Source: a virus
Taxonomy: Duplodnaviria; Heunggongvirae; Uroviricota; Caudoviricetes
Direction: 5' to 3' (one strand)
Virus record (IMG/VR): IMGVR_UViG_2778261245_000001
Coordinates: 1-38,365 of that record
Length of the DNA: 38,365 bases
The position numbers were made by a program, and so were the translations under genes. Under the pieces are notes generated by a model. It worked only from the letters and a program-made list of their open reading frames with translations, did no database searches and was not told the DNA's origin. Below are positions 1 to 35,500 of the stretch, one piece after another (within the stretch, counting starts at the first letter, position 1; every line of letters starts with the position of its first letter).

Positions 1-336
1 TTACGCAGCTCGTTGCTGCGTCCGGTGCTGACTGTGTGCCGGGAAAGCGACGGCGTAATCAACAACAGCCTGTTCAGTTGCCTCATCGGTACGGTTCTTA
101 AGGTTAGGAGCGCGGCGACTACGATTAATCAGCGCATCCACACCACCTTCATCGACCAGTTCGCGGTAACGATAAAACGTATCACGCGAAACGCCCATGA
201 TTTTACAGGCTTTTGATACGTTGCTGAGTTCTTCAGCCAGATTGAGCAAACCGGTTTTGTGTTTGATAACGGGATTGGTAGTATGAAGCATGAGAGTTAC
301 CTCGTGTTTTGTATAAGGATTCGACACCCATATCAA
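1..336 (-). mobile_element. Truncated IS-type transposase N-terminal HTH fragment (111 codons, stop codon at 1-3)
   Basis: Translation has an HTH-rich N-terminus of the kind found in IS481/IS3-type transposases (GVSRDTFYRYRELVDEGGVDAL) but terminates after 111 aa with no catalytic domain; family assignment is from memory. Confidence 0.4.
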
Positions 337-402
337 AACCGGTAACTCTCAACCTTTCAAGGCTCAGTGTCAGATCAAGTCGCGACTAATACATGTAAAT
401 AT

Positions 403-1533
403 TCATATTGTTAAAGTTACCCAATTTTTTCCGCGGAGATCGTTATAACGATCAGTTTGTTGCTGGGTTTTATGTCCCAGCAATTTCTGAGTATCTATTC
501 CCTGTTCTTTGTATAGCCTTTCTGACAATGAACGTTGCTCATGAAAGGTTGCTGGGGTTCCTTCACCCCAATCAATTTCAGCCAGATCCCTTGCTTTGCT
601 AAAATTCATAGTCAGAGTATTAGCTTTTACTTGTGCCCCACGTTCTGCCTGTGAAGTTGATCTGAAAAAATGTACTAAGTATGGACTATCTACATAGTCA
701 CGGCAGCGAGCTACAACATCGCGCAGGCTCCAGTTGATTACATTCAAACGAAGAGAAAGAGGAATGGCTATTTTGCTGCCGGTTTTTTCCTGTTCGATAT
801 GCAGATGATCATCCCAGATATCGCTGAATTTCATTTTGGATATATCTCCCAAACGTTGGCCAGTAACCAGCGCTAACAGCATGGCATTTCCCATGTAACG
901 ATGAGTGGAGTCTGCGATATCAAAAATTTTTTGCCATTCTTCCAGGCTGAGGCGTTGACGGGTGATTTTCCTTCTGGGTTGCTTCGTCGCAAGAGCAGGG
1001 TTATACCCTGGTGGAACTTCGCCATAATGCTGTGCTTCCTTAAACACATCGATTAATACAGACCTTACGACTTGGGCCATTCTAGGCTGTCCAGCTGTAA
1101 TATACTCATCAAGCAATTGTGCTATATCTCTGACATCAACGGATGAGATCAACTTCATTCCTGCTCGTTCTCTGAGCAAGGATACTGGTTTGGCTTTTTG
1201 CTTATAGGTATTGAGTCTTATATCACCACTTTTGAGCCTATCATCCTGGATCGCTTGATAGCGATCTAACCAGGTTGACGTTGTGATCGCTTTTCCTTTG
1301 CAGGTTGCGATCCTGTCACTGATAGCCAGAATCTGTCGGGTTCTTTGTTCAGCCAGGCGTGTATTGGCTTCAGTGGCAATAGCGATGGCTTCAGCTTCGT
1401 TAGTTCCCAACGCATGAAATTTCCCTGTTACTGGATGCTTATACCGCCAATAGACTTTATTTACCTTCCTACTATAAAGCGGATATAAGTTAGGTACTGA
1501 AACATTATTCTTACGCGGTCTGGCTGCCATCAC
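403..1533 (-). CDS. int: Lambda-family tyrosine integrase
   Basis: 376 aa; C-terminal catalytic region ending FHEQRSLSERLY...LLGHK...YNDLRG closely parallels the lambda Int C-terminus (FHELRSLSARLY...LLGHK...YRDDRG); followed by excisionase as in lambda. Confidence 0.9.
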   Translation of the reverse strand: MMAARPRKNNVSVPNLYPLYSRKVNKVYWRYKHPVTGKFHALGTNEAEAIAIATEANTRLAEQRTRQILAISDRIATCKGKAITTSTWLDRYQAIQDDRLKSGDIRLNTYKQKAKPVSLLRERAGMKLISSVDVRDIAQLLDEYITAGQPRMAQVVRSVLIDVFKEAQHYGEVPPGYNPALATKQPRRKITRQRLSLEEWQKIFDIADSTHRYMGNAMLLALVTGQRLGDISKMKFSDIWDDHLHIEQEKTGSKIAIPLSLRLNVINWSLRDVVARCRDYVDSPYLVHFFRSTSQAERGAQVKANTLTMNFSKARDLAEIDWGEGTPATFHEQRSLSERLYKEQGIDTQKLLGHKTQQQTDRYNDLRGKNWVTLTI

Positions 1534-1756
1534 TCAAGATCCGTTGCAAAAGTAATGAGTCATTTTTCTTGATTACTGGTGTTACCAACTCCCCAACTAA
1601 CTCAGCGTCCTCACGCACTCGCCATAACCGACCTTGTTTCATGGCCGGTGGGCAAAATAAATTCTGCTTAGCATAACGACGCAATGTGGACACACTTGGA
1701 GGATTACTTCTGTATTTTTCAGAGGCCCATTCTTCAAGAGTTAACATTTGAAGCAT
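1511..1756 (-). CDS. xis: Excisionase (Xis-like DNA-binding protein)
   Basis: 81 aa ORF immediately upstream of and overlapping int start by 23 nt; small basic winged-helix-like sequence; position as lambda xis. Confidence 0.7.
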   Translation of the reverse strand: MLQMLTLEEWASEKYRSNPPSVSTLRRYAKQNLFCPPAMKQGRLWRVREDAELVGELVTPVIKKNDSLLLQRILSDGSQTA

Positions 1757-1918
1757 ATGCGATCACCTTGTTACTTCACTAACTGTTCAGTCTCTGCATA
1801 TCGACCCTGCAAGGTCGGTTAGTTTCTCCACAAAACAGAGAAGAGCACCTGTGGCCACAACTATCAGGATGGATCGGGTTATGACCCCGTCATCCGGGGA
1901 TACTCTTCTCTGTTTTGT

Positions 1919-1965
1919 AAAAAGGGCGGTACCAGCCGGAAGCAAGGGTACAAGCTGGTACCGCC
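1919..1965 (-). terminator. Rho-independent terminator for leftward transcription, upstream of xis
   Basis: Perfect 12-bp GC-rich stem GGCGGTACCAGC / GCTGGTACCGCC (1925-1936 / 1954-1965), 17-nt loop, followed on the minus strand by CTTTTT. Confidence 0.55.
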
Positions 1966-2249
1966 AAGACTACACACAGCATAAAGTTGTGGTGCCGGGT
2001 GCCTCCCGGTGCCTGGCGAAGGTTGCACACCAGGCGGGTGGGTATCCACAGAAGGTCGACTGTCAGCCTCAACCTTAACCCGCGTGCGCTGAGCCGCATT
2101 CACCACAACGCTAAGGATTCTCTCTGGTTGAAAATACTTAGCTGTTATGTGCCTGCTTTTAGCCACATCAGGCGAGGTGGACCTGGTTATTCCCCAACAA
2201 CAAGGATTCGGTTAATCTGGTTATCCCCAACAACGCAAAAGGAAAAGAA

Positions 2250-2684
2250 ATGTCCGGTAATATCTATACGCTGTACAAATCCCACTGTGAAAATGTTGGA
2301 AAGTATCGGGGCATTGAAATCAGTGGGGTAGTGTCATCAGTCGAAATAAGCAAAGTTGAATCAAGGGCAACATTACTAACTCTTCTGGACCTTGTGTTAC
2401 ATGAGCACCGGAAGAAATTCGGCACTCCCTATAATCAGTTGAATGGGAAAAAGGCTCTGGTTCACCTTATTCTGATGAAGCATCACTGGATGCCAAAACA
2501 GATTAATGAGATGAAATTTGATGAACTTCTTCTTTCAATTCAGGATGAACTCACACTTGATAAAATAAGCGTAACCGCCCAGAAATTTTTAGATTATCGA
2601 GACTGGAGATCACAAATTCATCACTTTGATGATTTTGACGAAAATGAATGGGATCCTAATTTGTCTGCACAATATCTAAAGTAA
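2250..2684 (+). CDS. Hypothetical protein, 144 aa (accessory gene between xis and cI)
   Basis: ORF with AGGA-type RBS about 8 nt upstream of ATG; preceded by two direct repeats; no family recognised. Confidence 0.55.
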   Translation: MSGNIYTLYKSHCENVGKYRGIEISGVVSSVEISKVESRATLLTLLDLVLHEHRKKFGTPYNQLNGKKALVHLILMKHHWMPKQINEMKFDELLLSIQDELTLDKISVTAQKFLDYRDWRSQIHHFDDFDENEWDPNLSAQYLK

Positions 2685-2862
2685 CATCCTGTGATAAAAC
2701 CGTGATTTCCTGATCCAGTTTTTTTAAGGAGTCTATTGTTTCCTGTCGATAAGACAGCACTTCACGAAGCTGGTTTATAGCTGCCAGCTTCTTTGTCATC
2801 CACTCATAAATTTCCTCATCTGTGTAGTCAGGCGCGACGATTTTGGGTTCTGTTTTGTGCAT
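2656..2862 (-). CDS. Hypothetical small protein, 68 aa (convergent with 2250-2684, 3-prime ends overlap)
   Basis: ATG at 2862 preceded by a strong GAGGAGG Shine-Dalgarno about 7 nt upstream; ORF track lists a TTG-extended version to 2877. Confidence 0.5.
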   Translation of the reverse strand: MHKTEPKIVAPDYTDEEIYEWMTKKLAAINQLREVLSYRQETIDSLKKLDQEITVLSQDVTLDIVQTN

Positions 2863-2921
2863 TTCACACCTCCTCAAGTTATCAGTTACTTGTTGATGGG
2901 GACCAGATTGTTAAAGAGCTA

Positions 2922-2947
2922 AGCGTCCTGTAGGGCGCTTTTTTGTT
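2922..2947 (+). terminator. Rho-independent terminator, plus strand
   Basis: Stem AGCGTCC / GGGCGCT (one G-U pair), loop TGTA, followed by TTTTTTGTTG. Confidence 0.45.
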
Positions 2948-3061
2948 GCTAACGAATCATCCTGGACTTCATATGCCCCAGGCGGCTACTTCGTGGGCGT
3001 CCTGCCTGTTTGTTGTTTTTCTTGGGTACATTATGTATCTCAAAGGTACATTGTCAAGTAT

Positions 3062-3083
3062 AAAAAAACCTGCCGAAGCAGGT
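3062..3083 (-). terminator. Rho-independent terminator immediately downstream of the CI repressor gene
   Basis: Hairpin ACCTGC-CGAA-GCAGGT (3068-3083) preceded on plus strand by A7, i.e. T7 after the hairpin on the minus strand; 14 nt after the cI stop. Confidence 0.7.
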
Positions 3084-3096
3084 TCATAAACATTGA

Positions 3097-3771
3097 TTAG
3101 GCTTTGATTTTGTATCTTCTTGGTTTTCCTGAGAAAATCACAGTACCAATTATAGAGCAATTACCGTTGATCTTAATGTAAGGCTCAGGCCAGTTTGGGT
3201 TTAACGCTTTGAGATAACGCTGTGTCCCATCTTCTATCAACCTTTTGAAGGTGGTTTCACCTGTATCGTGCATCAATGCAATAACGTCGTCACCGTGGCA
3301 GGCAGGTACTTCAGGATCGACAAAAATCATGTCTCCCGGGCGGTACTCATCAATCATTGAATCACCTATCACCCGCAAGATATAAGTCATTTCCCCACAG
3401 GGTACAGGGCAGGGATACGTTTCTGCTGTGCTCAAATCAACCTCAGAATATCCAACTTCTTTCCATGCTCCGGCCTGTACCCATGATATGACAGGGACTA
3501 ATGTGATTTGTTTATTAGTGATTGAAACATCAGGTTTTTTTGTGATGTTCGTTGTCTGGTGTTCTTGATCGAGCCATCCGACAGGCAGGTCGAAACATTT
3601 TTCGATGTGTCGTGCCATGCTGTCACCGATATTTTTAGTAGCACCATCTCCCATAAACCTGCTGGTTTGGGTTGGCTCGCGATCAATCATAGTGGCAAAG
3701 GAAGAATTCCCGCCAACACCATCTCTCAGTTTTCTGGCGTTAGACCGCCGGATGTCATGGATTGTTTTCAT
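3097..3771 (-). CDS. CI-type prophage repressor (N-terminal HTH plus C-terminal S24 LexA-like peptidase domain)
   Basis: 224 aa; C-terminal ...YILRVIGDSMIDEYRPGDMIFVDP... is the S24 autocleavage domain signature; divergent from a cro-like gene; same length as e14 CohE. Confidence 0.9.
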   Translation of the reverse strand: MKTIHDIRRSNARKLRDGVGGNSSFATMIDREPTQTSRFMGDGATKNIGDSMARHIEKCFDLPVGWLDQEHQTTNITKKPDVSITNKQITLVPVISWVQAGAWKEVGYSEVDLSTAETYPCPVPCGEMTYILRVIGDSMIDEYRPGDMIFVDPEVPACHGDDVIALMHDTGETTFKRLIEDGTQRYLKALNPNWPEPYIKINGNCSIIGTVIFSGKPRRYKIKA

Positions 3772-3786
3772 AACGAAATTAAAACC

Positions 3787-3807
3787 CTTGTACCGTTAAG
3801 GTACAAG
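3787..3807. promoter_or_regulatory. Candidate operator: 21-bp palindrome CTTGTACC-GTTAA-GGTACAAG in the cI-cro divergent intergenic region
   Basis: Perfect 8-bp inverted arms; an isolated GGTACA half-site recurs at about 3850-3855 next to the cro RBS; putative -35 TTGAAG (3812-3817) and -10 TAATAT (3834-3839) for cro lie between. Confidence 0.45.
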
Positions 3808-3861
3808 TATCTTGAAGGTTCATTTTAATCATGTAATATGTATATTGGAGGTACATATTGT

Positions 3862-4062
3862 ATGAAAGCGTATTGGGACTCTTTAACCAAAGAACAGCAG
3901 GGCGAGTTGGCCGGAAAAGTTGGCTCAACACCTGGCTACTTACGGCTGGTTTTCAATGGCTATAAAAAAGCCAGTTTTGTGCTGGCTAAAAAACTTGAGC
4001 AATGCACGTCAGGTGCAATTACGAAATCTGACTTAAGACCGGATATCTATCCGAAAGATTAG
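3862..4062 (+). CDS. Cro-like small HTH regulator
   Basis: 66 aa from ATG 3862 with GGAGG RBS at about 3847-3851; divergent from cI; ORF track lists a longer version from 3838. Confidence 0.7.
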   Translation: MKAYWDSLTKEQQGELAGKVGSTPGYLRLVFNGYKKASFVLAKKLEQCTSGAITKSDLRPDIYPKD

Positions 4063-4093: not shown

Positions 4094-4663
4094 ATGAGGC
4101 TAATCGTGGGTAAGCATCACTGGAAAATAGAAAAACAGCCTGAGTGGTACATGAAAGCTGTCAGAAAAACTATCGCGGCGTTGCCGGGTGGTTACGCTGA
4201 AGCCGCTGACTGGCTGGATGTAACAGAGAACGCTTTATTCAACCGCCTTCGTGCAGATGGCGATCAGATTTTTCCGCTGGGATGGGCAATGGTTTTACAG
4301 CGTGCTGGTGGCACTCACTTCATTGCTGATGCTGTGGCGCAGTCTGCAAATGGCGTATTTGTGTCTCTTCCTGACGTCGAGGATGTGGACAACGCCGATA
4401 TTAACCAGCGTCTGCTGGAAGTCATTGAACAGATCGGCAGTTATTCAAAACAGATTCGTTCAGCAATCGAAGACGGTGTAGTGGAACCGCATGAGAAGAC
4501 AGCAATTAACGACGAGCTGTATCTCTCAATTTCGAAGCTGCAGGAGCATGCAGCACTGGTCTACAAAATCTTTTGCATTTCAGAAAGTAATGACGCCCGC
4601 GAGTGTGCAGCTCCGGGCGTCGTGGCGTCGATTGCTTCTGGTTGTGGAGAAACTAACGCATGA
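4094..4663 (+). CDS. YdaT/YmfL-like early regulatory protein (CII-position gene)
   Basis: 189 aa ORF directly downstream of cro; size and position match e14 ymfL and Rac ydaT; start may be the internal ATG at 4151. Confidence 0.5.
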
Positions 4664-4998
4664 ACAGTTTAACAACACACTACCGTCGCTCGCAACTGAT
4701 TGCGCTTCCTGTACCGGGTGGAAAAGCGAAGGTGGAATATTGCTATGCAGTGAATGTACCAGGTGACAGGGAAATTGTAACCCACAGCTTTGCAGAGTGG
4801 GCTGTGGGTGATTTCAACCGGCAGAAGGAGACAGTCCTTTGCGACAAGTTAACCGCTGGTTCAAAGATCACTACGGAGTGCCCGTCAGAGTTATTCGTTG
4901 GGAGCCGGAAACACAACGGGTTATCTACCTCCGTGAAGGCTATGAGCATGAGTGCTTCAGCCCGCTCGAACAGTTTCGTCGTAAATTCAGGGAAATAG
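4660..4998 (+). CDS. Hypothetical protein, 112 aa (YmfM-position gene)
   Basis: ORF overlapping previous stop (ATGA-type coupling); same length and position as e14 ymfM; no family recognised. Confidence 0.45.
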
Positions 4999-5007
4999 AG
5001 GTCGGTC

Positions 5008-5949
5008 ATGAGCACTAAATTAACCGGCTATGTATGGGATGGTTGCGCTGCGTCAGGCATGAAATTATCCAGCGTGGCAATTATGGCCCGCCTGGCTGAT
5101 TTCAGTAATGACGAAGGTGTGTGCTGGCCATCAATTGAAACCATTGCCCGTCAGATTGGCGCGGGGATGAGTACCGTCAGAACGGCTATCGCACGGCTGG
5201 AAGCAGAAGGCTGGTTAACGCGTAAGGCGCGTCGCCAGGGTAACCGCAATGCGTCGAATGTTTATCAGCTTAACGTTGCGAAGCTTCAGGCAGCGGCATT
5301 TTCTCAACTGTCAGATTCTGACCCGTCAAAATCTGACGCATCAAAATCTGACCCGTCAAAATTTGATGCGTCGAAATCTGGCAAAAAAGCGGGTTTTCAC
5401 CCGTCAGAATCTGGCGGGGATCCGTCAGTAAAATCAAAACATGATCCGTCAGATAAAAAACCTTCTCGTCCGGACGCTTCGCAACCGGACACGCAGACGG
5501 CTGAACAGGATTTTTTAACTCGCCATCCTGATGCGGTTGTATTCAGCCCTAAAAAGCGCCAGTGGGGGACGCAGGATGATTTGACCTGCGCACAGTGGCT
5601 CTGGAAAAAAATCATCGCCCTGTACGAGCAGGCTGCCGAATGTGACGGCGAGGTGGTTCGTCCCAAAGAACCGAACTGGACAGCCTGGGCAAACGAAATT
5701 CGCCTGATGTGTGTACAGGATGGGCGTACTCACAAACAAATCTGCGAGATGTACAGCCGCGTCAGCCGCGATCCGTTCTGGTGCCGTAACGTGCTCAGCC
5801 CGTCGAAGCTGCGGGAAAAATGGGATGAGCTTTCCCTGCGCTTATCGCCGTCCGTCAGCACGTACACCGAAAAACGCGAGGACCCGTACTTCAAAGCCAG
5901 TTACGACAACGTGGACTACAGCCAGATCCCGGCAGGATTCAGAGGGTGA
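5008..5949 (+). CDS. Phage replication initiator (lambda O-like: N-terminal HTH, internal iteron-encoded repeat region, C-terminal domain)
   Basis: 313 aa; N-terminal winged-helix-like segment; central low-complexity DPSKSD repeats encoded by DNA iterons; position after cro/cII-like genes. Confidence 0.7.
   Translation: MSTKLTGYVWDGCAASGMKLSSVAIMARLADFSNDEGVCWPSIETIARQIGAGMSTVRTAIARLEAEGWLTRKARRQGNRNASNVYQLNVAKLQAAAFSQLSDSDPSKSDASKSDPSKFDASKSGKKAGFHPSESGGDPSVKSKHDPSDKKPSRPDASQPDTQTAEQDFLTRHPDAVVFSPKKRQWGTQDDLTCAQWLWKKIIALYEQAAECDGEVVRPKEPNWTAWANEIRLMCVQDGRTHKQICEMYSRVSRDPFWCRNVLSPSKLREKWDELSLRLSPSVSTYTEKREDPYFKASYDNVDYSQIPAGFRG
5311..5455. repeat. Iteron array (candidate replication origin) inside the replication-initiator gene
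   Basis: At least 7 tandem copies of a 12-15 bp unit resembling CCGTCA(A/G)AATCTGA, e.g. gacccgtcaaaatctgacgcatcaaaatctgacccgtcaaaatttgatgcgtcgaaatctgg. Confidence 0.55.
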
Positions 5950-34945: not shown

Positions 34946-35500
34946 ATGCTTATTGGCTATGTACGCGTATCAACAAATGACCAGAACACAGATCTACAAC
35001 GTAATGCGCTGAACTGTGCAGGATGCGAGCTGATTTTTGAAGACAAGATAAGCGGTACAAAGTCCGAAAGGCCGGGACTGAAAAAACTGCTCAGGACATT
35101 ATCGGCAGGTGACACGCTGGTGGTCTGGAAACTGGACCGGCTGGGGCGCAGTATGCGGCATCTTGTCGTGCTGGTGGAGGAGTTGCGCGAACGAGGCATC
35201 AACTTTCGTAGTCTGACGGATTCAATTGATACCAGTACCCCAATGGGGCGCTTTTTCTTTCATGTGATGGGTGCCCTGGCTGAAATGGAGCGTGAACTGA
35301 TTGTTGAAAGAACAAAAGCTGGACTGGAAGCTGCTCGCGCACAGGGACGAATTGGTGGACGTCGTCCCAAACTTACACCAGAACAATGGGAACAGGCCGG
35401 ACGATTAATTGCATCAGGAGTTCCTCGCCAGAAGGTGGCGATTATCTATGATGTTGGTGTGTCAACTTTGTATAAGAGGTTTCCTGCAGGGGATAAATAA
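34946..35500 (+). CDS. pin: Serine DNA invertase (Hin/Gin/Pin family)
   Basis: 184 aa from ATG 34946 with AGGGGGA RBS; MLIGYVRVSTNDQNTDLQRNAL...DTLVVWKLDRLGRSMRHL...GRRPKLT is the resolvase/invertase catalytic and HTH signature; matches PinE as recalled. Confidence 0.9.
   Translation: MLIGYVRVSTNDQNTDLQRNALNCAGCELIFEDKISGTKSERPGLKKLLRTLSAGDTLVVWKLDRLGRSMRHLVVLVEELRERGINFRSLTDSIDTSTPMGRFFFHVMGALAEMERELIVERTKAGLEAARAQGRIGGRRPKLTPEQWEQAGRLIASGVPRQKVAIIYDVGVSTLYKRFPAGDK

Follow-up and report, generated by a model that had tools for sequence, protein, structure and literature searches.

In bacteriophage lambda, sieB is a non-essential exclusion gene expressed in the lysogen, and Esc is known as the self-protection product in P22 and lambda. 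Convergent prophage systems are also known from Bacillus subtilis (txpA/RatA and bsrG/SR4), in which a 3' overlap lets one transcript silence the toxic partner. In the e14 prophage of Escherichia coli K-12, the neighbouring genes ymfI and ymfJ have been scored from RNA-seq as a convergent excludon; during the SOS response ymfJ shows a late rise (log2 of 4.8) together with intE and ymfM, with ymfI rising by approximately 2, and the authors of that study ascribed the late induction of ymfJ, intE and ymfM to cleavage of the CI-like repressor. In the current work, a 38,365-nucleotide (nt) stretch of viral DNA (IMG/VR record IMGVR_UViG_2778261245_000001, positions 1 to 38,365, referred to below as "the window", in the numbering of which all coordinates are given) was examined for a pair of convergent genes located in the same position as ymfI/ymfJ, between xis and the repressor gene cI. 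This pair, consisting of a gene of the ECs1072 family (the "large" gene) and a gene of the YdfC family (the "small" gene), represents, as judged from sequence comparison, a widespread, previously undescribed and conserved two-gene prophage module. With roughly even chances of being right, we read it as a portable prophage cassette in which an accessory large gene expressed in the lysogen is antisense-coupled to a small partner of the lytic phase.

An earlier examination of the window, made by a model from the letters alone (the sequence-only reading), had described a 144-amino acid (aa) open reading frame (ORF) on the plus strand and a convergent 68-aa ORF on the minus strand, the latter preceded by a GAGGAGG ribosome binding site, with an overlap of about 29 nt, all of which agrees with the ORF listing and the sequence (Table 1). 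The minus-strand ORF, whose stop codon lies at 2656, encodes 73 aa if read from TTG 2877 and 68 aa from ATG 2862, the 68-aa form being the one annotated in RefSeq. Both ORFs are judged to be genuine protein-coding genes because each has homologues and because the ratios of nonsynonymous to synonymous substitution rates (dN/dS) range from 0.08 to 0.37 for the two genes. The sequence-only reading did not recognise a family for either protein; each can now be assigned to a named, uncharacterised one, i.e. NF033230 and YdfC/phrog_1744.

The large protein matches the NCBIfam profile NF033230 ("ECs1072 family phage-associated protein") with 157.8 bits (E 1.7e-46; curated cut-off 70 bits) across its full length, residues 4-144 being aligned to profile positions 2-142, which places it within this family, and identical copies carry the same family name in RefSeq. 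It also matches phrog_5286 (E 1.5e-90). An exhaustive HMMER search defined the ECs1072 family as 65 cluster representatives, mostly of 145-155 aa and with 25-38% identity, from Escherichia, Salmonella, Proteus, Providencia, Serratia, Rouxiella, Hafnia, Xenorhabdus and Photorhabdus, as well as Erwinia, Pantoea, Kosakonia, Enterobacter and Phytobacter. Residues R54, H72, W80 and W134 are invariant across the family, and pairwise dN/dS values of 0.08-0.23 for the large gene indicate purifying selection. The protein is hydrophilic and predicted to be soluble, with no membrane segment, and its AlphaFold2 model, based on a 41-sequence alignment, is confidently all-alpha (predicted local distance difference test score of 87.7, predicted template modelling (TM) score of 0.84). 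Foldseek returned no significant match for this fold, HEPN toxins being the best (E 1.4, TM 0.23), and the sole match of a profile search of the PDB by sequence was a chance one to myoglobin (E 0.5). Scans of both proteins with Pfam, NCBIfam and PADLOC, together with Pfam scans of 37 family members, returned NF033230 only; in PADLOC-DB v2 neither protein matches any defence family at E<=1, and BLASTP gave no alignment between the large protein and SieB at E<=100. A literature search for ECs1072, the protein accessions and the PHROG identifiers yielded one entry in a microarray table. It is from genomic position, not from homology, that we infer a possible role of the large protein in exclusion, defence or host modulation.

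The small protein matches phrog_1744 over 68/68 positions (E 4.5e-35), a group that also contains YdfC of K-12 (E 1.6e-39). BLASTP aligns it over 66 aa with YdfC of Qin-type phages at 42% identity (E 9e-19), and tblastn agrees. Both this full-length similarity and the position of the small gene in a repressor-controlled early operon place it in the YdfC family. Purifying selection is evident here as well (pairwise dN/dS 0.15-0.37). The protein is acidic and hydrophilic, with an isoelectric point of 4.6, a grand average of hydropathy of -0.55, a maximum of 0.29 for any 19-aa hydropathy window and no membrane segment; its 14 N-terminal residues are predicted to be disordered or extended, and residues 15-67 to form a single long helix. 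Two candidate distant homologues (P0055 and P0064) were rejected, being frameshifted metagenome assemblies of the same cassette, and a directed-evolution paper on YdfC in yeast has no bearing on the native function of this protein.

In order to follow the pairing across the family, loci of distant members were gathered, for which single distant members in viral contigs provided few loci and the family sub-alignment on genome contigs provided 31, and every ORF (3594 in total) was scored with hidden Markov models (HMMs) of both proteins. In 13 distinct loci a convergent small ORF overlaps the 3' end of the ECs1072-family gene, by 29-107 nt; these are the window/SfIV type, E. albertii, E. coli M056, Proteus, Rouxiella, Serratia grimesii, two loci each of Providencia and Photorhabdus, and three viral contigs. 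On the tree of the large protein, the paired members belong to two deep clades. The absence of either ORF from related prophages, which the sequence-only reading had named as grounds for giving up the pair, is not what was found: the convergent overlap is conserved in SfIV, in E. albertii and in the distant loci. In the latter the large proteins retain 30-35% identity, the partners overlap by 71-107 nt and the prophage sites differ. The distant partners, of 79-93 aa, belong to phrog_3501 and share the motif PYFFNPGMTxEELEDWL...KEKAALEERL...FPWxPSPLL, which bears a remote likeness to the N-terminus of YdfC (EPxIxAPDYTDxELYEWM), the small proteins being approximately 18% identical. The HMMs of the YdfC-like group and of the distant partners are each other's best non-self matches among all ORFs scored (E 0.00085-0.1), an hhalign comparison of the two groups gives a probability of 86% (E 4.9e-6, 57 columns), and the sole second PHROG match of the distant partners is phrog_1744 (E 0.003). 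Homology between the small protein of the window and the distant partners is probable, not proven.

The distant loci also reveal a recurrent arrangement of terminators and sites. On the large-gene strand of 9/11 distant paired loci, a hairpin with a T tract is located 20-33 nt past the stop codon and within the partner ORF. Read on the opposite strand, this T tract corresponds to the K-E-K codons of the partner; the stems vary among loci yet still pair. In E. coli M056 (L013) and Rouxiella (L017) the pair is located between the Q antiterminator gene and the holin gene, a classic late-operon moron site, where the small gene runs with late transcription and the large gene opposes it. In prophage Sp4 of E. 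coli O157 Sakai, the gene that gave the family its name (now ECs_5703) occupies the cII-O interval and is antisense to the PR operon. In that locus (L057) a plus-strand ORF (4117-4677) lies opposite ECs_5703 (4361-4816, minus strand) and is antisense through most of the gene; its start holds a weak motif resembling YdfC or the distant partners (LSDVELAEWL, 13-16 bits), which is treated as a hint only.

The main rival to a functional module is that the pair consists of unconnected neighbours, the small one being an ordinary early lytic gene (compare ydfC in dicBF-type operons) and the large one an unrelated co-travelling moron, with the overlap reflecting nothing more than genome compaction. 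Each gene is indeed found alone: in Qin, an untranslated region and dicF come after ydfC; Kosakonia, Enterobacter, Erwinia, Pantoea and Salmonella have solo ECs1072-family genes, as do L003 and L031; and other cassettes at the e14 site contain a plus-strand gene only. Compaction does not readily explain that the convergent overlap has outlasted divergence to 30-35% identity for the large and approximately 18% for the small proteins, that it occurs at at least two different prophage positions, or that the terminator of the large gene is repeatedly embedded at the same place in the coding sequence (CDS) of its partner. We therefore regard the co-travelling explanation as somewhat unlikely. The solo genes of Kosakonia, Enterobacter, Phytobacter, Erwinia, Pantoea and one Salmonella form a monophyletic clade located in varied chromosomal islands, L003 and L031 being solo genes inside paired clades, and inspection of the contexts of solo members for a conserved neighbour retrieved none across genera.

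These same solo members bear on the suggestion, made in the sequence-only reading, of a toxin-antitoxin or addiction module, whether acting between proteins (type II-like) or through antisense RNA (type I/III-like). The predicted 3'-overlapping convergent transcripts, the conservation of the pair on mobile elements and the presence of GhoT/OrtT-type toxin genes beside some solo family members would be compatible with such a module. The suggestion nevertheless fares poorly, and we consider it very unlikely. The two genes are convergent, on opposite strands and not co-transcribed, in contrast to the single operon of a type II system; both proteins are hydrophilic, whereas type I toxins are hydrophobic membrane proteins; and both strands encode proteins under purifying selection, rather than one specifying a non-coding antisense antitoxin. 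No toxin, antitoxin or defence profile in Pfam, NCBIfam or PADLOC is matched, and no helix-turn-helix or ribbon-helix-helix domain is present. Co-occurrence is not obligate either, with the large gene being alone in approximately 25 species-level loci and ydfC in Qin. Because the large gene is often solo and the small gene should be repressed in a lysogen, the small protein cannot be an antidote on which the large one depends. Furthermore, an induced Qin operon that retained ydfABC without dicF and dicB was not growth-inhibitory.

Several neighbouring genes are recorded here as observations in their own right. Near the solo ECs1072-family genes of Salmonella enterica s1 (L018, 4437-4885) and Kosakonia sacchari (L042, 1877-2321), two tandem genes for small membrane toxins of the GhoT/OrtT type are located on the opposite strand, a few hundred bases from the large gene. 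A SIR2_2 plus DUF87 gene pair (L016, 6892-9674), defence-like in appearance, adjoins the Proteus copy of the pair, and a gene encoding an Acb2/Tad1-hairpin (anti-defence) protein (L017, 1042-1278) lies near the Rouxiella copy; cargo for defence and counter-defence is thus found alongside the module.

Table 1 Features of the xis-cI interval of the window and of its surroundings
Feature	Coordinates	Strand	Basis or remark
Large gene, ECs1072 family (NF033230; phrog_5286), 144 aa, ATG start	2250-2684	+	ORF listing, HMM
Small gene, YdfC family (phrog_1744), 68 aa	2656-2862	-	ORF listing, HMM, BLASTP
3' overlap of large and small coding sequences, 29 nt	2656-2684	both	
Shine-Dalgarno sequence GAGGAGG of small gene	2870-2876	-	Sequence; 7 nt upstream of ATG 2862
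Cassette in place of ymfI/ymfJ of e14 K-12	2182-2945		e14 alignment; edges common to other cargo variants
Duplicated 18/19-nt element CTGGTTAT(T)CCCCAACAAC	2183-2201, 2217-2234	+	-67 and -33 from ATG of large gene
Terminator-like hairpin in small-gene CDS, 9-bp stem (2766-2791), weak T tract	2766-2799	+	Terminator scan
Canonical intrinsic terminator, 8-bp GC-rich stem 2921-2940, TTTTTTG	2921-2947	+	Scan; -14.3 kcal/mol; upstream of small-gene start
Putative PL-type promoter, TTGACA, 16-nt spacer, CATAAT (11/12 matches)	3030-3057	-	Promoter scan; region identical in e14
Two operator-like 17-bp sites over promoter spacer, -10 and start region	3014-3050	both	Motif TGTAYC-N5-GGTACA
Repressor-gene terminator, between cI transcript and PL promoter	3066-3085	-	Scan; folding z -4.4
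STnc100/DicF-like small RNA (sRNA) element, e14 backbone	1916-2139	-	Rfam 45.2 bits vs gathering score 47, E 1.4e-7
Intrinsic terminator of sRNA element, 13-bp stem then CUUUUU	1919-1965	-	-29 kcal/mol, z -4.4
Integrase	403-1533	-	
Excisionase	1511-1756	-	
LexA-like repressor (cI/ymfK-like), Peptidase_S24 domain	3097-3771	-	
Cro-like gene	3838-4062	+	
CII/CP76-like gene	4094-4663	+	

Alignment of the window with e14 of K-12 shows near-identity from xis to 2181 and again from 2946 to the repressor gene, the intervening segment being different. The possibility that this segment represents a diverged copy of ymfI/ymfJ was rejected, since BLASTP found no similarity between the window proteins and YmfI or YmfJ; the cassette is a replacement, as the sequence-only reading had supposed when it described a variable accessory slot with a swapped cassette. 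The complete cassette is present in 408/5426 complete E. coli genomes (approximately 7.5%), and other cargo occupies the slot in further E. coli strains. Variant L010 holds one unrelated plus-strand gene of 171 aa (1570-2085; phrog_1244) and variant L011 one unrelated plus-strand gene of 167 aa (1570-2073; phrog_3983), both without a minus-strand gene. Their cassettes share edges with that of the window, on the left at 2182-2236 and on the right at approximately 2900-2945, where the plus-strand terminator is located. The duplicated element CTGGTTAT(T)CCCCAACAAC is common to the window, L010 and L011; e14 of K-12 has neither this shared 5' edge with its element nor the 2921-2940 terminator. Because the same 5' edge and terminator frame unrelated genes in L010 and L011, the xis-cI slot is a hotspot of cargo exchange, and the plus-strand unit is a conserved frame for expression in which the cargo can be exchanged. 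On the repressor side, L011 has a gene of the ParA family instead.

Considering that the large gene is bracketed by this conserved 5' edge and by its own intrinsic terminators, it can be described as an autonomous, moron-like transcription unit, and two features typical of morons, possession of a terminator of their own and presence or absence among similar prophages (e14, L010 and L011 carrying other cargo), agree with this description. The plus-strand terminator that the sequence-only reading had placed at 2922-2947 is present, with its T tract directly following the stem. It is found in SfIV, E. albertii, L010 and L011, the stem sequence of E. albertii being different and still forming a hairpin. 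The weaker hairpin embedded in the small gene is kept in SfIV, E. albertii and L001. Because the predicted terminators lie inside and beyond the small gene, the mRNA of the large gene would be complementary to approximately 140-290 nt of that of the small gene, and a PL transcript that continues past the small-gene stop would therefore be antisense through the large gene. The antisense coupling proposed in the sequence-only reading is plausible in view of these terminators in and beyond the small gene. The overlap is also retained in very divergent homologues, and the pair scored as an excludon in K-12, ymfI-ymfJ, occupies the same site.

Such an arrangement could also operate as a transcriptional brake, in which the convergent plus-strand unit and its antisense 3' end would damp a leaky lytic operon and stabilise lysogeny, the protein being secondary. 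This would accord with the orientation of the large gene, which is antisense to a lytic operon at all three prophage positions encountered (PL-proximal in the window, downstream of Q in L013 and L017, and in the cII-O interval of Sakai Sp4), and with the unrelated cargo genes that the same frame carries at the e14 site. The strong constraint on the large protein (its dN/dS values, its invariant R, H and W residues and its confident fold) and its persistence as a solo gene on chromosomes outside prophage operons imply that the protein itself must matter, and a brake as the primary function is accordingly judged quite improbable.

Lying behind a PL-type promoter, the small gene opens the leftward early operon; in K-12 the same promoter region drives ymfJ. 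The palindrome TGTAYC-N5-GGTACA occurs in five copies, at 3034-3050 and, in a weaker form, at 3014-3030, and in the cI-cro gap at 3789, 3806 and 3839. Together, the operators and the leftward promoter have, on the sequence evidence, a lambda-like PL/OL (and OL/OR) layout of putative repressor sites. Because the -10 and spacer of the promoter lie under operators shared with the cI-cro gap, the small gene is expected to be silent in the lysogen and to be switched on after cleavage of the LexA-like repressor. Further along this putative transcript is an STnc100-like element, which contains a weak DicF match (1924-1978), overlaps a frameshifted hypothetical/ymfH-like CDS of RefSeq, and is also present in e14 of K-12 and in SfIV. 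By analogy with ydfC and dicF in Qin, it may be an sRNA derived from the 3' part of the PL transcript. The sequence-only reading had noted a minus-strand terminator here, and the hairpin is strong, with a stem kept in e14 and a differing loop; the additional claim that the small gene faces this terminator does not hold in any direct sense, as the terminator is located approximately 690 nt downstream, closes the sRNA-like element of the e14 backbone and lies outside the cassette.

Taken together, these features lead to the following model for the even-chance reading given at the outset. The cassette would have entered a prophage of the e14/SfIV type at that end of the early-left operon which lies next to the repressor, where expression of its genes would be mutually exclusive in an excludon-like manner, with the large protein being made in the lysogen and the small protein after induction. 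The large protein would provide an accessory function of the lysogenic phase, most likely superinfection exclusion, defence or host modulation. When the prophage turns lytic, convergent transcription and the formation of an RNA duplex would shut off this function, and the small coiled-coil partner may in addition neutralise the large protein at the protein level. An exclusion module, as mentioned in the sequence-only reading, is possible. A more elaborate version, which we consider distinctly unlikely, is that the two proteins make up a hitherto unrecognised accessory system of prophages that brings its own self-immunity. In this version the large protein would act in the lysogen against incoming phages or on the host. 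The small acidic coiled-coil protein, expressed from the lytic promoters of the prophage itself (PL, PR' or PR), would combine with convergent transcription to switch the large protein off and let the resident phage develop, and YdfC of Qin would be an orphaned antagonist of this type.

A number of findings weigh against the even-chance, excludon-like model. The large protein is soluble and has no sequence similarity to SieB, and the homology between the small protein and the distant partners is marginal in HMM-to-sequence tests. The approximately 25 species-level loci with a solo large gene, and ydfC of Qin without a large gene opposite, imply that a partnership at the protein level is not obligatory. 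Ahead of the large gene (upstream of 2250), promoter and motif scans of the window detected no convincing candidate of the sigma-70 or extended -10 type, for which reason expression of the large gene in the lysogen is something we only infer. In favour of the model, most ECs1072-family loci carry an extended -10-like sequence, TGATATTGT (TGnTAnnnT), at the place where the clade of the window has the duplicated CTGGTTAT; this motif is located at -39 to -52 relative to the start of the large gene in 31/41 family loci, compared to 6% of random windows.

The remaining features concern the surroundings of the cassette. The first 4.7 kb of the window represent the immunity/integration end of an e14/SfIV-like lambdoid prophage, and the top phage matches of the window are the E. 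coli phages vB_EcoM-689R6 and -720R4 and the Shigella phages SfIV and SfV. Abutting the integrase end is a truncated piece of a transposase of the IS481 family (1-336, minus strand), for which RefSeq lists a frameshifted IS481 transposase in a matching strain. Rfam gives a sub-threshold psRNA2 match at 294-458 (plus strand; 46 bits vs a gathering score of 65) and a spurious "mir-5880" match at 5309-5383 (plus strand). The latter sits on a short peptide-repeat region (SDPSKSDASKSDPSKFDASKS) within the O-like replication-protein gene (5008-5949), and SfIV gives the same match.

Both genes of the pair are common and have been annotated merely as hypothetical, with relatives across Enterobacterales prophages, including Sp4 of O157 Sakai. 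Recognition of the pair turns two orphan annotations into a single testable unit that moves between classic lambdoid moron sites and in which the terminator of the large gene is written into the coding sequence of its partner. It also provides a first functional context for YdfC, uncharacterised since the dicBF operon was described, and would constitute a compact natural example of toggling between lysogeny and lysis by convergent transcription. Should the large protein turn out to act in exclusion or defence, this would add a new fold to that field.

Among the closest known systems, the sieB/N region of lambda shares the topology of the pair: a repressor gene is followed by PL with its operators and by a first leftward gene, on the 3' end of which a rightward gene converges. 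In the lambda record this convergence is end-to-end (N ends at 35037 and sieB at 35036), whereas in the window the coding sequences overlap, the large-gene terminator lies within or beyond the partner, and that partner is YdfC-like rather than an N antiterminator. SieB is furthermore a membrane protein to which the soluble large protein shows no sequence similarity, so that the large protein is not a member of the SieB group and its likeness to this exclusion gene is one of genomic topology alone. The e14 pair occupies the same slot, with the ymfH-like element on one side and the PL promoter on the other; its flanks are identical, and it has the same plus-then-minus convergent order with overlapping 3' ends. 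The comparison with ymfI/ymfJ proposed in the sequence-only reading thus returns a shared slot and layout for unrelated proteins, which are of 113 aa (YmfI, plus strand) and 102 aa (YmfJ, minus strand) with a 63-nt overlap in K-12, as opposed to 144 and 68 aa with a 29-nt overlap in the window.

The dicBF operon of Qin is likewise an early operon under repressor control. It encodes a homologous small protein, YdfC, whose gene lies beyond dicA and the dicB promoter and, as in the window, is followed by a long stretch and then by a DicF/STnc100-type sRNA element with an intrinsic terminator. Qin differs in that ydfA and ydfB are located upstream, in that no ECs1072-family gene lies opposite, and in that no strong antisense terminator is present in its ydfC. 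With excludons the pair would have in common the long antisense overlap that its terminator positions predict. Finally, the large gene resembles a phage moron in being an autonomous gene with its own terminator inside a phage operon, variably present among related prophages, and differs from the usual moron in that a partner gene travels with it to different prophage sites.

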